Assembly: GCA_000004695.1 (NCBI GenBank)
Contig: CM000155.2
Span: forward strand, 1,632,001-1,696,000
DNA from: Dictyostelium discoideum
Lineage: Eukaryota
Length of the DNA stretch: 64,000 nucleotides
Direction of reading: 5' to 3'
Both the position numbers and the translations under genes were made by a program. This document shows positions 45,187 through 59,928 of this stretch, in pieces. Numbering within the stretch: position 1 is the stretch's first letter; each line of letters begins with the position of its first letter. The notes under the pieces are model-generated. The model searched no databases, had not been told where the DNA came from, and saw only the letters and a list, made by a program, of their open reading frames with translations.

Positions 45187-46098
45187 ATAAACTTTTTTTC
45201 TCTTAAATCCTCTTGCAATAGAAAATAATATATAAAAAAAAAAAAACTTTTAAAAAAAAAACTTTAAATTATAATTTAATATTTAAATTTTATTTATTTT
45301 ATTTATATCTCATTATATCATTCAATTTGAAAATTTAATATTATAATTTAACAATAAAAATTAATTATTTAATTTAATAATATTATCTATTTTAATTAAT
45401 TGATTTTTTTATTTTTTTTTTTTTTCAAAGAAAATGAAATTTAATATTACCATTATTTTTATTATTTTTTTTTTTTTTTCAGAAAAAATTAAAACAAATA
45501 TTTTTAAAAATTAAGAAATCAAAGATAAATATTACAACACAATGGTGTTTTGTTTTGTTTTGTTTATTTTTTTTTATTTTTTTTTTTACAGATTTCCTAA
45601 AAAAAAAAAAAAATAAAAAAATAAAAAAATAAAAAAAAGATCTAGTCAGTTTTTTTTTTTTTATTTTTTTTTTTTTTTATTTATTTTATTTTATTTTATT
45701 TTATTTTATTTTTTTTTATTCTTATTCACATATTTTCAATATCTTTGAAAAACCCTTGGTTTAATATTTAAAAAAAAAAATAATAAAAAAAATAAAAAAG
45801 AATTCCAAAAGGACTTCGAAAATCTGTTGAAAAGATCGCGAAACCAATTTTTTTAATATTATGACATAGGACCCTAACGAAAAGGCACTCCAAATATGGA
45901 AGGAAGTTGAAATAAATTAAATTTTGATTTTTTAAACTGTTTATTGTTTAATTTAATTTTTAAAAAAAAAAAAAAAATTAAATGAAATTCTTTCTCAATA
46001 TAAATTAAACAATTTTTACCATTTTTTTTTAATTAAATAAATAAATAAAAAAAAAATAAAAAAAAAATAAACTTTCCAATTTCCAAATTACTTATACA

Positions 46099-47313: not shown

Positions 47314-47718
47314 TTTAATTGTTTTAAACAAATCGAAATTCCTGAAAATATTAAAAAAAAAAAAATTTCCATTAATTTTTTTTTTTTTTTCTAAAATATC
47401 AAATTTATTACTAATTATACTCAAGTAAATTAGGAAATAAAATAAAAATAAAAAAATTAATAAATAAAATAAATTGCTTAATTTTTATTTTTAAATTGTT
47501 GAATTTATTTCAACAGATCTTTTTTTTTTTTTTTTTTTTATTTTTTTTTTTATTTTTATTTTTAATAATTTTAATTTTTATTTTTTTTATTTTTTTTTTT
47601 TTTTTATAATTTCTCTTTTTTTTGAAACTATATATACAATAAATTTTATAATATATACATATATTTTTTTAAACCACTCCCTTCACAATTAATTAATTAT
47701 TTATTTTATTTTCTTTTA

Positions 47719-51879: not shown

Positions 51880-53955
51880 ATGTCAGATTCAAGTGATAGT
51901 GAATCATCATATAATTCATCATCATCATCATCAAGTGAAAATGAATCAAATAAAGATGAAAAGAAAGTTTTATTTCAAGATGATTCAGAATCAGAAGCTG
52001 AAAATGAAATTAAAGTAAATGAAAAGTTTGAAAGAATGTATGAAGCTAAAAAAGCACATAATGAATTAATTTCAGCATCAACCACACTTGAAGAAGATGA
52101 ACAAAGTGAAGATGATGATGGTAAATTTGATTCAAAAGTAATGAAAGATGGTTTCCTTACACTTTTACCATTATTAGCAAAAAAAAAAACAGATTTATTA
52201 TTAAAGAATAAAGATGTAAAATTCTTTAATAATAATAATGATAATAATAACAATGATGAAGAAGAAGAAGAGGATGAAGGATCAGATGAAGCAGATAGCG
52301 AATCTGAAGAATCTGAATCTGAAAAAAAGAAAAAGAAGAAACCATTCACATTAAAAGATTATCAAAGAGAGAAACTTACAAAAACAATGAATAAAGATCA
52401 ATATGAGGAATCTGATGAAGAGGATTTCGATTCATTACCACATAATAAACAACAAGAGAAATTAAAGAAAGATTTCTTTGATGCTTCAAGAAAATCATTT
52501 AAAGATGGTGGTGGTGATGATGGTGATGACGATGATGGTGAAGATGGTTCAGATGATGATTTTTTAGTTAAAAGAAAAAAGACTGAACAAGATCAAGAGA
52601 TTGAAGATAAAGAATTTGAAGAATTTAGACAACGTTTAGAGAAAAAGAAATCACCATTCCTTGAAGAGACTGATACAATTAGTGAATTTTGGAAAGGTAA
52701 AGATGCCGATACTGATGAGAAATTCCTTAGAGATTATTTGTTAGGTCAAAAATGGCAATCTGACAAAGGTAAATTACCAACCTATGAAGAGATTCTTAAA
52801 GAATTGGATCAAGATGAAGGTGAAACCGTTAAACAAGATGATTTCGAACGTACTTTTAATTTCCGTTTCGAGGAACCAGGTTCAGCAATTATCGTCAATC
52901 ATCCACGTACAATTGAAAACTCAGTTCGTCGTAAAGATTCCGCTAGAAAAACAAAAAGAGAAAAGAAGAAAGAAAGAAAAGAACAACGTGCTGTTCAAAA
53001 TCAAGAGAAAATTAAACAACTCAAAAATGAGAAAAAGAAACAAATCCTTGAAAAAGTTAAAGAAATTAATAGTATCACTGGTTCAAATTTATTCAATTTA
53101 GATTCTGTTGATATTAAAAAGATTGATCCTGAAATAATGGTAAAATCAATTGGTAAAAAAGTTAAGCAACCACAACAACAAGATAGTAATAATAATGAAG
53201 AAGAAGGATATGATGAAAACTATGAAGGTGGTGAAGGTGATGATTATCAATATGATGAGGGTAATGGTGGTCGTTATGATTTAAATAAAATCATTGAGTC
53301 AGGACTTTATGATGACCAATTTGAAGATGATGGTGAAGTTTGGTCAAATGAAAGAATGTCAAAAGAACGTGAAGAATTAGAATCAATGTTAGATAGATAT
53401 TATGAAATGGATTATCAAGATCTTTTAGGTGATGATACTCCAGTTCGTTTCAAATATACAAAAGTTGAACCTGATTCAACCATTTCAATCGATGATATCT
53501 TGGAAAAGGATGATAAAGATTTAGAAAAGATTTTACCATTAAATAAAATCGCCACCTATTATAATCCTTCCTATAAAGGTTATCGTCAAAAAGCTGATAA
53601 AAGATATTTCGATAAACCTTCAACTAGTAAATATCTCACAAAATCTTCAAAAACTTCAACAAATTATAATAGTAAATATAATCAAAATAAACAATTTAAT
53701 TCTAAATTTGATAATAATAATAATAATAATAAAAATAATAATAATAATAATAAAAATAATAATAATAATAATAAATTTAATAATAATAAAAAAGAAGAAT
53801 TCAGTAATAATAAAAAAGATTATAATAATAATAAACCACAACAACAACCACAACAACCACAAACTACTGAACCAACTGAACCAGCTGGTGAAAAGAAAAG
53901 AAAAGCCAAGAACAAAAATAAAGCATCCACTAATAAAATTCAAAAAGTTGAATAA
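51880..53955 (+). CDS. KRI1-like ribosome biogenesis protein
   Basis: 691-aa acidic/basic protein. The central EFWKGKDADTDEKFLRDYLLGQKWQ and the C-terminal VRFKYTKVEPDSTISIDDIL resemble the Kri1 and Kri1_C conserved blocks. The N- and C-termini are poly-Ser/Glu and poly-Asn/Lys. Confidence 0.55.
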   Translation: MSDSSDSESSYNSSSSSSSENESNKDEKKVLFQDDSESEAENEIKVNEKFERMYEAKKAHNELISASTTLEEDEQSEDDDGKFDSKVMKDGFLTLLPLLAKKKTDLLLKNKDVKFFNNNNDNNNNDEEEEEDEGSDEADSESEESESEKKKKKKPFTLKDYQREKLTKTMNKDQYEESDEEDFDSLPHNKQQEKLKKDFFDASRKSFKDGGGDDGDDDDGEDGSDDDFLVKRKKTEQDQEIEDKEFEEFRQRLEKKKSPFLEETDTISEFWKGKDADTDEKFLRDYLLGQKWQSDKGKLPTYEEILKELDQDEGETVKQDDFERTFNFRFEEPGSAIIVNHPRTIENSVRRKDSARKTKREKKKERKEQRAVQNQEKIKQLKNEKKKQILEKVKEINSITGSNLFNLDSVDIKKIDPEIMVKSIGKKVKQPQQQDSNNNEEEGYDENYEGGEGDDYQYDEGNGGRYDLNKIIESGLYDDQFEDDGEVWSNERMSKEREELESMLDRYYEMDYQDLLGDDTPVRFKYTKVEPDSTISIDDILEKDDKDLEKILPLNKIATYYNPSYKGYRQKADKRYFDKPSTSKYLTKSSKTSTNYNSKYNQNKQFNSKFDNNNNNNKNNNNNNKNNNNNNKFNNNKKEEFSNNKKDYNNNKPQQQPQQPQTTEPTEPAGEKKRKAKNKNKASTNKIQKVE

Positions 53956-54298
53956 AAATATTTTTAAAAACAAAAATAAAATAAGAAATTAGATTTTCTA
54001 AAAAATTCTATAAATAATCCAAGATTTTCATTTTTTTTTTTTTTTTCTAATGGACAATTTAAGGTTTTTACCTTTTTTTTGTTTTTTAAAAAATTTCCCT
54101 CCAAATTTTGGGAAAAAAAAATAAAAAAAAAAAAAAACACAAAACAAACTTTTTTTTTTCATTTTCATACTTTATTCTTGTAATTAACAACTATTCATAT
54201 TGTAAATAAACTTTTTATTTTTTTGTAAAAAAAAAAAAAAGAGTAAAAAAGGTAAAAAAAAAAAAAAAAAAAAATATAGGTATATATAAATTCAAAAA

Positions 54299-56407
54299 AT
54301 GATTCAACAACTTCCAATGGTTAATGTTGAATTAATGATTAGTAATTTAAGAATTTTAGTTGAATCAAAGCAATTTTCATCAGCAGAATTTTTAGGTAAT
54401 TTTGTAATATCAGTACCAAATCAACAAAAAACACCTCATCAAAATATAATTTCATTTTCTTTATTTGGTGACTCTTTATTTGGAAAGAATGAATTTGTTA
54501 GATCATTAAAATATTTTAAACAATCATTAGATATATTATTTAAAGTCTATAATAATCCAAATAATAATAATAATAATAATAATAAACAAGCAGACTTTGA
54601 CAATAAACAATTTGAATACGAATTAAAATATAAAATATCATTATGTTATATTAAAATTAATAGAAATAATTTAGCAATTTCATATGTAAGTAATTTAATA
54701 TTAAATAAATATATATATATGTATATTTATAAATTTTTAAAAAATAGTTATTAATAACAAAAAAAAATAGCTTGAATCTATACCATTTAGCTCAAGAGGA
54801 TTAGATACACATTTAACAATTGCAAGATTATATAAAGATATTGGTAAAGAAAAATCAAAAGAATGTATTATTAGTTATAAAGAAGTTATAAAATTATGTC
54901 CATTATGTTTAGAAGCAATTAACTCATTAAAAGAAATGGGTGAAAATGTAGATCAAGTTTTAATACCATCAATAAATAAATTTCAACAAAAAAATAATAG
55001 TTTTAATTCAAATAATATAATAGATTTATCTTGGATATCTTTATTATCAATGTCTCAATATGAAATGAAAAGAAATCAACCTGAAAGTAATTATAATTAT
55101 TATTATTATTTTTTTTTTTTTTTTTAATATTATTATTATTATTAATTTTATATTATTAATATTATTTAATTATTATTTTAGAATCATTAATATTATTAAA
55201 AAAAGTTGAATCTAAATTTTCAACAAATTTATATGTTTTAGAGAAATTAGCATTATCTTATTTATATCATGATGAACCTTCAATAATTAATACATTTAAT
55301 ATCTTTCAAAAAATTAGATTATTAGATCCATATTATATTGGTTCAATGGATATATTTTGTTCATTATTAAAAAGAAGATCATTACAATTTGAATTAAATA
55401 AGTAAGTATTGTAATCATATAATTATTAATAAAAAAAAAAAATAAAAAAAAAACATATTATTAATTTTTTAAAAAAAAAAATAATAATAAACAAAGAGTA
55501 TGTAATGATTTAGTAGCATCAAATCCATATTGTGCAGAAACATGGACATCAGTAGCATTATTTTATTTTTTAAAAGAAAATGTTGAAAAATCATTAGAAA
55601 ATGTTGATAGAGCAATTAGTATTAAAGAATCACATGAATTTGCACATTCATTAAAAGGTGAGATATTATTATCATTGGATGAGCCAAGAGAAGCATTACC
55701 CTCATTGGAAAGAGCATTCCAACTTTCAAAGAATATTTTAACAGCACGTGAATTAGTTAGATGTCATTTAATATTAAATCAAATGAAAGAAGCTTTAGTA
55801 GTCGCTGAAACTATCAATAATCTTAGTCCTGACTACTCGAAAACAATGGCTTTACTTGGCATGGTTTTAGCAAATCAACCTGAAGAAAGAGAAGAAGCTA
55901 GAAAAATTTTAACAAAAGCTTTAACTTTATCTCCACATTGTACTGACACTGTTTTAACTTTAAGTAAATTAAATGTTGTTGAAGGTAGATTTCAAGAAGC
56001 AATTGATATGTAAGTTAATATATTAATAATACACTCACTCTTTATATATTTAATTTATTAATTCTTTTATTTTATTTTATTATATTAAACTAAATTTTAG
56101 TTTAAATAGTCAATTGGAATATCAAGAAACAGATTTAATGCACACAGAAATTGCAGGAGTTTATTTAACTAAAGATTATCATGAAGATGCAATGATTCAT
56201 TATAATAGTGCATTAGAAATTAATCCTCAATATGAACCTGCATCAAGAGGTATTGCAAGATTGGAATTAATTATGAAAGGTATTGATCCTGATCAAGAAT
56301 TAGATCAAGAGAATGATGATGATGATCAAGAAGAAGGTGAGGGTGAAAATGATCAAGAGGAAAATGATGACGATGATAATGACGATGATGATGAATATAT
56401 TTCTTAA
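54299..56407 (+). CDS. anapc7: Anaphase-promoting complex subunit 7 (APC7)-like TPR protein, 5 exons
   Basis: Exons 54299..54685, 54771..55086, 55182..55401, 55497..56009 and 56101..56407. The donors are GTAAGT, GTAATT, GTAAGT and GTAAGT, and all phases and lengths check. The TPR blocks and C-terminus (…VVEGRFQEAIDM|ILNSQLEYQETDLMHTEIAGVYLTKDYHEDAMIHYNSALEINPQYEPAS…) parallel the human APC7 C-terminus (…EGRYEEGIALLRNALANQSDCVLHRILGDFLVAVNEYQEAMDQYSIALSLDPNDQKS…). It ends in an acidic D/E tail. Confidence 0.5.
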
Positions 56408-57494
56408 AAAAAAAAATAATAATAATATTAAAAAAATAAATAAAAAAATAAAAGAATTTAAAAAAACTTAAATTTGATAAAAAAAAGCAAAAGAAGAAAT
56501 AAAAATAAAATTAAAAAAGATATTTTTTCTAAAAAAAAAAAAAAAAAAAAAATGAAAAATGAAAAAAAAGATATTTTTTTTTGATGCGAAAGTGGCTCAC
56601 GTGACTTTCCAGTTTTTTTTTTATTTTTTTAAAAAATTCGAATCCTTCTTTTCACTTTTTTCATATGATTCTGATAAGATAATAATCTTTATGAATAAAA
56701 AAAAAAAAAATTTAAAAAAAAAAAAAAATTAAAATAATAAAGGGTATATTTTGTGTTATTTGTCTTTGGCACGTGACTTTTGGGGTGCGATTTTCAAAAA
56801 ATAAAAAAAAATAAATAAAAAAAAATAAAAAGATAATTGCAAACATATTTCGTAAAATTCTTAATTTTAAAATCACCATTATAATAATAGATAATTGATT
56901 GAATTTAAGCTTTGAATATAAAAAACAAATAATAAAAAAAAAAAAATATATAAAAAAAAAAAAAAAAAATATAGGACTTAATATTTGCATGCAAAAATTA
57001 TAAAATCAAGTGGTTTTCAAAAAAAAAGAAAAAAAAAAAAAAAAAAAAATAATAAAAAATAAATGGGCAACAGTGTATAGTGTTGTTGTGTGTTTAAAAA
57101 ATTTTTTTGAATTTTTTTATTTTTAAATAACCACTCCCAACTTTTTTGATTTTTTTTTTTTTGAATTTTATTTTTTTTTTTTTTTTTGTTTTTTTTTTTT
57201 TTATTCTTTTTTATTTTTTTTTATTTTTTTTTTATTATTTTTATTTATTTTTTTTTCCAACACTAAAAACAATTGACACATAAACTGTTGTTAATTAAAT
57301 TATTATTATTATATATAACCAGTAATTGTTTAATAATAATTTTAACTTGATTGTGTAATTTTTATTTATTTTAAAATTAATTTTTTTTTTTTTTAATTCT
57401 TTATTTTTTTAGTTTTATTTTTTTTTAAAAAAAAAATAAGATAATTCCTGTTTTTTTTTTTTATTATAACAGAGTATTTTACTTTATTAATAAA

Positions 57495-57734: not shown

Positions 57735-57735
57735 A

Positions 57736-59662: not shown

Positions 59663-59928
59663 AAAAGCTATTGAAATTACTTTCCACATTTTCCTTTTTT
59701 TTTTTTTCCTCGTTCTCAATCAATCCATAAAAAAAAATAAAAAATAAAATAAAATAAAAAAATGAAAATCAAAATCAACAAACAACAAAAAAAGATTATA
59801 TATAACAATTTTACATTAAAAATGGCACTCTCTCTTCTTTGTCTTAGCTTTAGTCTAGTCTTGGTTTTAGTTTTCAGTCAGTGTTTTAATTTTAGTGAAT
59901 TTAGAAAATCAATTTATTTTTGGTAATA

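Follow-up and report, generated by a model that had tools for sequence, protein, structure and literature searches.

The 1.3-kb non-coding spacer that runs from the 3′ end of APC7 to the 5′ end of an ELAV-like gene, both on the + strand, contains a pair of CACGTG sites that is probably a small homotypic cluster of cis-regulatory protein-binding sites, palindromic and of E-box/G-box type (ACGT-core), within an upstream promoter module. The pair consists of an 11-base CACGTG-centred word, CACGTGACTTT, which occurs exactly twice in the window (the whole 64,000-nucleotide stretch of DNA analysed), at 56598 and 56770, on the same strand and 172 bp apart. The occurrence of the sites and their pairing are non-random, their conservation at the DNA level is strict, and signatures of an RNA gene or of a Pol III gene are absent.

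The window belongs to Dictyostelium discoideum and has a G+C content of 22.8%. Its 691-residue open reading frame at 51880–53955 is 100% identical to the Kri1-like protein DDB_G0292468 of D. discoideum AX4. The gene whose stop codon lies at 56407 is APC7 (among PDB entries it matches human APC7 best, at E = 9e-13 and with collinearity over the C-terminus), and the gene whose ATG lies at 57735 encodes an RRM protein with 43–47% identity to animal ELAV-like proteins. These two matches confirm the placement of the pair between APC7 and an ELAV-like gene that was made in an earlier note on this DNA. A literature search with the identifiers of the neighbouring genes found nothing. The spacer, named here locus 2 to distinguish it from a second pair of CACGTG sites in the window (locus 1), is long for Dictyostelium and carries other conserved islands in addition to the pair. 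Its main features are the following:

56586–56597, + strand: upstream flank module of site A′, GCGAAAGTGG followed by CT; the family consensus is GYGAAARTSG, and D. firmibasis has GTGAAAATGG followed by CT
56593–56608, unstranded: core of site A′, TGGCTCACGTGACTTT, with CACGTG at 56598–56603; a perfect 16-nt block in D. firmibasis (L006 14809–14824)
56636–56645, + strand: B-box-like word ATTCGAATCC, judged a chance match and outside the element
56769–56786, unstranded: core of site B′, GCACGTGACTTTTGGGGT, with CACGTG at 56770–56775 and a G-rich tail, TTTTGGGGT; a perfect 17–18-nt block in D. firmibasis (L006 14965–14982)
56785–56796, − strand: 12-mer TGAAAATCGCAC, an exact match to 16775–16786; specific to D. 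discoideum, with TTATTTTAATAT in D. firmibasis
56877–56906, + strand: TATA-like block CATTATAATAATAGATAAtTGATTGAAT, 107 bp downstream of site B′, which holds the conserved 18-mer CATTATAATAATAGATAA

Motif A′ as first described, tgcgaaagtggctcacgtgactttccag, is found at 56585–56612 and is followed by the T10 run that had been reported after it (56613–56622). Motif B′, ggcacgtgacttttggggtgcgattttc, is likewise present, with its end at 56795 (56768–56795) and not at 56796, and the core CACGTGACTTT is indeed repeated, its second copy starting at 56770 and not at 56771. The 11-mer GAAAATCGCAC, said to be common to both loci, occurs at 16776 (+ strand) and at 56785–56795 (− strand). A perfect 10-bp palindrome, GTCACGTGAC, had also been placed inside motif A′, where it is absent; the letters there are CTCACGTGAC, and the palindrome is therefore limited to the 8-bp TCACGTGA at 56597–56604.

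Both the occurrence and the pairing of CACGTG are beyond chance. Dinucleotide-preserving shuffles give an expectation of 0.83 copies for the window, and seven are seen. Because coding and intergenic DNA differ greatly in composition, the expectation was recomputed with local G+C. The 26.6 kb with less than 20% G+C contain three copies against 0.16 expected, and one more copy lies at 23% G+C; coding regions contain three against 2.3 expected, and are thus at expectation. In AT-rich DNA the hexamer stands about 20-fold above the local-composition expectation, and it is the commonest of the 24 palindromic hexamers with four G/C bases in the fraction of the window below 20% G+C. The intergenic copies, four in number, are arranged as two pairs with distances of 649 and 172 bp; when four positions are drawn at random in low-GC DNA, an arrangement into two pairs of at most 650 bp arises in just 0.2% of trials (p about 0.002). 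The earlier description of a recurring CACGTG motif grouped in pairs is borne out by this enrichment and this pairing. Paired sites are the usual pattern of clustered factor sites. No copy was found in a further ~10 kb of D. discoideum DNA to the left of the window, which indicates that the element is rare and is no general promoter word; neither the paired motif nor the extended B′ block was matched when metagenomes were scanned.

Orthologous DNA of other dictyostelids was reached by using the neighbouring Kri1 gene as an anchor. The top ELAV-like match had also been considered as the orthologous region and was rejected as a chimeric D. discoideum contig. In D. firmibasis, whose Kri1 is 81% identical, the gene order NOL10–Kri1–APC7–ELAV-like is retained. 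The earlier note had taken a lack of further copies in the genome, together with a lack of orthologous conservation, as the mark of a local coincidence; both CACGTG elements are instead perfect blocks in the aligned D. firmibasis spacer, TGGCTCACGTGACTTT at A′ and GCACGTGACTTTTGGGG(T) at B′. Over the 6.9 kb of intergenic DNA aligned between the two species, 34% of G/C bases are conserved. Among the G/C-containing perfect blocks of these 6.9 kb, those of B′ and A′ rank third and fourth, and in their own spacer they rank first and second, site B′ being the G/C-richest perfect block between APC7 and the ELAV-like gene. A control alignment to the reversed D. firmibasis spacer gave no block with more than one G/C. 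The layout is collinear in both species: B′ follows A′ after 172 bp in D. discoideum and 152 bp in D. firmibasis, and the 18-mer CATTATAATAATAGATAA, identical in D. firmibasis (L006 15059), follows B′ after 107 and 93 bp, respectively. Across the locus 2 region, a second assembly of D. discoideum shows no difference. The comparison, which is with one fairly close sister species, points to purifying selection on both sites.

The DNA between A′ and B′ is poorly conserved in this alignment and shows many indels. The B-box-like word ATTCGAATCC reads TCAATTTC in D. firmibasis, the tgcgattttc flank of B′ reads ttattttaat, and the CCAG together with part of the T-run after A′ is deleted; since they vary in this way, all three fall outside the element. 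The gaaaatcgcac flank (the 11/12-mer common to both loci) is absent from D. firmibasis and is not supported as a constrained part of site B′. In T. lacteum, Kri1–APC7 is retained with other genes downstream, and the 22 kb searched contain no CACGTG, so conservation of the element is not deep, or its position has changed. Neither H. album nor A. subglobosum retains synteny around Kri1.

These observations make it improbable that the sites are a coincidence, or a functionless leftover of a local duplication or of a mobile element. Only four intergenic sites are present in 64 kb, and other dispersed G/C-containing 10–12-mers do recur in unrelated spacers, as TTTCCCTCCAAA does at 23118 and 54094; coincidence, however, is opposed by the enrichment, by the pairing and above all by the perfect D. 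firmibasis conservation of exactly the A′ and B′ blocks. As regards a leftover, homology between locus 1 and locus 2 is confined to words of at most 12 nt, and terminal inverted repeats at the locus are absent except for A/T runs, which together argue against a duplicated segment or mobile element. Segmental duplication, a MITE and a dispersed repeat were accordingly rejected for want of extended homology, the inverted repeats being A/T runs.

The pair at locus 1 is formed by two sites:

16125–16143, unstranded: site A, made up of ACGCAAGTGG and then CACGTG, with a perfect 12-bp palindrome inside it, TGGCACGTGCCA (16132–16143)
16774–16793, unstranded: site B, GTGAAAATCG followed by CACGTG and CTTT, with 9 of 10 module positions as in D. 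firmibasis site A′

Site A is situated upstream of a CDK-like kinase gene on the minus strand, about 600 bp from its start, and site B is found some 780 bp beyond the stop codon of flavohemoglobin. At three places in the two loci, CACGTG is directly preceded by a 10-nt module, GYGAAARTSG, namely at 16125–34 (ACGCAAGTGG), 16774–83 (GTGAAAATCG) and 56586–95 (GCGAAAGTGG, then CT). The form that it takes in D. firmibasis, GTGAAAATGG, differs by two substitutions, both at the two degenerate positions of the family, and the 12-mer TGAAAATCGCAC beside B′ is the same module on the opposite strand. The likeness of the A′ flank to locus 1, written before as ‘gcRaagtggc', is recovered by reading as GYGAAARTSG at three CACGTG sites and is suggestive. 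The same grade applies to a putative composite, GYGAAARTSG-N0-2-CACGTG-(A)CTTT, since G/C-containing 12-mers common to unrelated AT-rich spacers exist in the window, though they are few. With respect to its neighbouring genes, the module does not point the same way at locus 1 as at locus 2. A fixed ‘A…B' unit was also considered and was rejected, the orientation of B differing between the two loci.

Two further observations concern locus 1. The perfect 12-bp palindrome of site A, TGGCACGTGCCA at 16132–16143, resembles the optimal site reported for the Drosophila E(spl) bHLH proteins, a metazoan family. Between the two CACGTG sites lies a DUSE-like ACCCATAA (16444–16451, − strand); DUSE is the upstream element of Dictyostelium small-RNA genes.

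An action of the motifs at the RNA level, in an unannotated transcript that would carry a hairpin GAAAGU…ACUUUC and then a U-run, or in a small non-coding RNA, has about the same low probability as coincidence. Site A′ can form a hairpin of 6–8 pairs (−9.4 kcal/mol) followed by T10, and it lies in a spacer whose 1.3 kb are a considerable length for Dictyostelium and which carries other conserved islands. The z value of this fold is only −1.9, however, with 9 of 200 shuffles equally stable, and those of the other segments (both strands of both sites, and the locus 1 sites) range from −1.4 to +0.5. Two-species consensus folds have energies of −1.55 and −1.1 kcal/mol with zero compensatory pairs, two species giving low power, and a G-to-A substitution in the D. 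firmibasis flank removes one stem pair. As a stem pair is broken and no compensatory change is seen, conservation tracks the DNA word and not the fold. The conserved structures that had been proposed for segments of locus 2 thus did not appear on folding (z −1.9 to +0.5, no compensatory change, one pair lost). Beyond two noise matches (E 2.7 and 5.2), a permissive Rfam search (E≤10) of 56400–57100 gave no family, and no DUSE-type element is present at locus 2, the window-wide count being 7 against 10.4 expected. A scan for bacterial-style promoters and terminators told little about the locus and gave no terminator-like site. The poorly conserved, indel-rich DNA between the two sites also speaks against a structured RNA spanning them.

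Downstream of the TATA-like block, three more islands are conserved: AAATGGGCAAC at 57061–57071, which could start a tiny upstream ORF (MGNSV-stop in D. discoideum, MGNCAL-stop in D. firmibasis), ACACATAAACT at 57276–57286 and CCTGTTTTTTT at 57447–57457. Taken together, they suggest that the 5′ leader is long or that the spacer gives rise to a separate short transcript.

The feature that had made locus 2 look unusual, a B-box without a tRNA and with it a possible role of TFIIIC, fails on inspection. The word attcgaatcc is present between the motifs as claimed; it lies at 56636–56645, not at 56640–56649, and it is not a perfect core, as it has A for the consensus first G. ATTCGAATCC thus matches 9 of the 10 positions of the B-box core and departs from the B-box consensus GGTTCGANNCC. 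When one mismatch is allowed, TTCGAATCC has nine matches in the window against 9.8 expected, which is chance frequency. ARAGORN and, at the gathering threshold, the Rfam tRNA models identify a genuine tRNA-Cys at 32088–32161 only, and Rfam finds no cloverleaf in 56400–57100 even at E≤10. Being imperfect, at chance frequency, lost in D. firmibasis and negative with ARAGORN and Rfam, the B-box-like word between the sites is a chance match.

A Pol III/TFIIIC element, that is, a decayed tRNA gene or an extra-TFIIIC site composed of an A-box-like TGGCTCACGTG and the B-box-like ATTCGAATCC, is accordingly the least probable of the readings considered and hardly credible. Its appeal lies in the resemblance of GCGAAAGTGGCTCA to tRNA positions 1–14, in the tRNA-like spacing of the B-box-like word about 43 bp downstream of the A-box-like word, and in TTTTCAC after the B-box-like word, which could pair with 6 of the 7 bases of GCGAAAG. 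The A-box-like word nevertheless agrees with TRGCNNAGTGG at only 6 of 9 specified positions, the T10 run at 56613–56622 falls between the two boxes and would terminate Pol III, and what has been conserved, CACGTGACTTT, is no Pol III element. Locus 2 resembles a tRNA internal promoter, or the Dictyostelium external B-box, in having a 9/10 B-box core with an A-box-like TGGCTCA ~43 bp upstream, and is unlike a tRNA gene in having no tRNA, an unconserved box at chance frequency and T10 between the boxes.

The reading preferred here is that of protein-binding sites in a promoter module. Factor-binding sites in Dictyostelium promoters usually take the form of short G/C islands in AT-rich spacers. 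Protein binding, the target gene and the class of factor are all inferred. A dimeric sequence-specific factor would bind each CACGTG palindrome and would contact the asymmetric flanks, GGC(T) on the 5′ side and ACTTT on the 3′ side. The two sites and the conserved TATA-like block ~100 bp downstream, in which CATTATAATAATAGATAAtTGATTGAAT would act as a TATA box, would make up an upstream promoter module driving a transcript from the + strand; its most likely source is the ELAV-like RRM gene, which has its ATG ~1 kb downstream. The target gene is uncertain, since the sites are about 1.0–1.1 kb from the ELAV-like ATG and only 190–365 bp from the APC7 stop codon.

The proximity to APC7 bears on another explanation, namely that the sites are a non-promoter element bound by a general factor: a boundary, a nucleosome-excluding site or a roadblock-termination site just after APC7, as with the general regulatory factors of Cbf1/Reb1 type in yeast, or a component of a replication origin. 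Site A′ lies ~190 bp past the APC7 stop codon and locus 1 site B ~780 bp past that of flavohemoglobin, the motif is used independently of gene orientation, and it is rare, as its absence from the further ~10 kb of D. discoideum illustrates. This explanation is nonetheless unlikely: no general factor of Cbf1/Reb1 type is known in Dictyostelium, the 3′ end of T. lacteum APC7 has no CACGTG, and the collinear conserved TATA-like block downstream suits a promoter better.

As promoter sites, those of locus 2 compare most closely with the class B E-box and the plant G-box, which are bound by bHLH-Zip or bZIP dimers and have the same palindromic CACGTG hexamer. The likeness extends to their location in intergenic promoter-side DNA, their homotypic clustering and their flank-dependent extended conservation. 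The flanks of the plant G-box are symmetric (GCCACGTGGC), whereas those of locus 2 are asymmetric, GGC(T)-CACGTG-ACTTT. The 8 bp of USF/Cbf1 sites, TCACGTGA, are found inside site A′. Of the CLEAR element of MiT/TFE, GTCACGTGAC, the half CACGTGAC is present in both locus 2 sites, but the 10-bp palindrome is not, the letters being CTCACGTGAC at A′ and GGCACGTGAC at B′. To our knowledge, no MiT/TFE, USF or Cbf1 homologue has been reported in D. discoideum. Among Dictyostelium elements, the GBF G-boxes/CAEs and the CCCCAC-type sites of DimB are, like the sites of locus 2, short G/C islands in AT-rich spacers and often paired, and the conserved tail of site B′ (TTTTGGGGT, which reads ACCCCAAAA on the opposite strand) is similar to C-rich/G-rich Dictyostelium elements (PMC3253789). 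The core CACGTG differs from the Dictyostelium elements described in the literature searched, which contains no CACGTG element.

The transcription-factor census of Dictyostelia lists 23 bZIP genes (PMC6873476). D. discoideum has a single HLH-containing gene, LsrA, which is Tcf25/Nulp1-like and shows weak bHLH similarity (PMC6873476; PMC3066132), further HLH genes being present only in dictyostelids outside group 4 (PMC6873476). As D. discoideum is thus reported to be without canonical bHLH proteins, a bZIP dimer would be the first guess for the binding factor, followed by LsrA or an unrecognised family; binding of a bHLH protein at the CACGTG sites is possible. bZIP dimers bind plant G-boxes. 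DimB, a Dictyostelium bZIP, has a CCCCAC-like site with no ACGT core (PMC3253789), and the conserved ACCCCAAAA tail of site B′ is possibly an adjacent second site of DimB-like kind, which is to be taken as a lead only.

A bolder version of the preferred reading joins the factor to the flank module of the two loci. The sites would then be an undescribed ~22-bp composite of group-4 dictyostelids, GYGAAARTSG-(0-2 nt)-CACGTG-(A)CTTT, used in pairs and read by a factor other than a canonical bHLH (bZIP, LsrA or a DNA-binding family that is new), the lineage having lost its classical bHLH proteins. We regard this version as conceivable but doubtful.

On present evidence, locus 2 represents one ordinary-looking promoter module at one locus and not a genetic element of a new kind. 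What is new is the site itself, none being found in the Dictyostelium literature searched; its kind, an E-box/G-box-like promoter element, is well known. Its significance lies in the fact that few cis-regulatory words are known in Dictyostelium, where most of roughly 290 transcription factors are without a known site, and that a rare, strictly conserved and paired CACGTG occurs here in a species said to be without classical bHLH proteins. Sites of 16–18 bp provide a concrete bait for DNA-affinity purification and could tie an orphan factor to its site.

The comparison with D. firmibasis also brought out conserved blocks in other spacers of the window. A block of ~130 nt at 45806–45935, in the spacer between RpL6e and a cysteine-protease (Peptidase_C1) gene, is highly conserved. 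Within it the 37-mer AAAAGGACTTCGAAAATCTGTTGAAAAGATCGCGAAA is perfect, and no intergenic block in the 22 kb compared is better conserved; Rfam gave no match to it at E≤1. This block could be an unannotated ncRNA, an exon or a UTR. Another block, ~85 nt at 59822–59905, lies where the ELAV-like gene and the next gene, on the minus strand, converge, between their 3′ ends. It is conserved in D. firmibasis, includes the perfect 36-mer TGTCTTAGCTTTAGTCTAGTCTTGGTTTTAGTTTTC, likewise has no Rfam match at E≤1, and may be a 3′-UTR element or a small RNA. Finally, two shorter G/C-containing words are each common to unrelated AT-rich spacers of the window: TTTCCCTCCAAA, at 23118–23129 and 54094–54105, and AACCACTCCC, at 47672–47681 and at 57129–57138, the latter in the APC7/ELAV-like spacer. 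Each of them may be a recurring promoter word.
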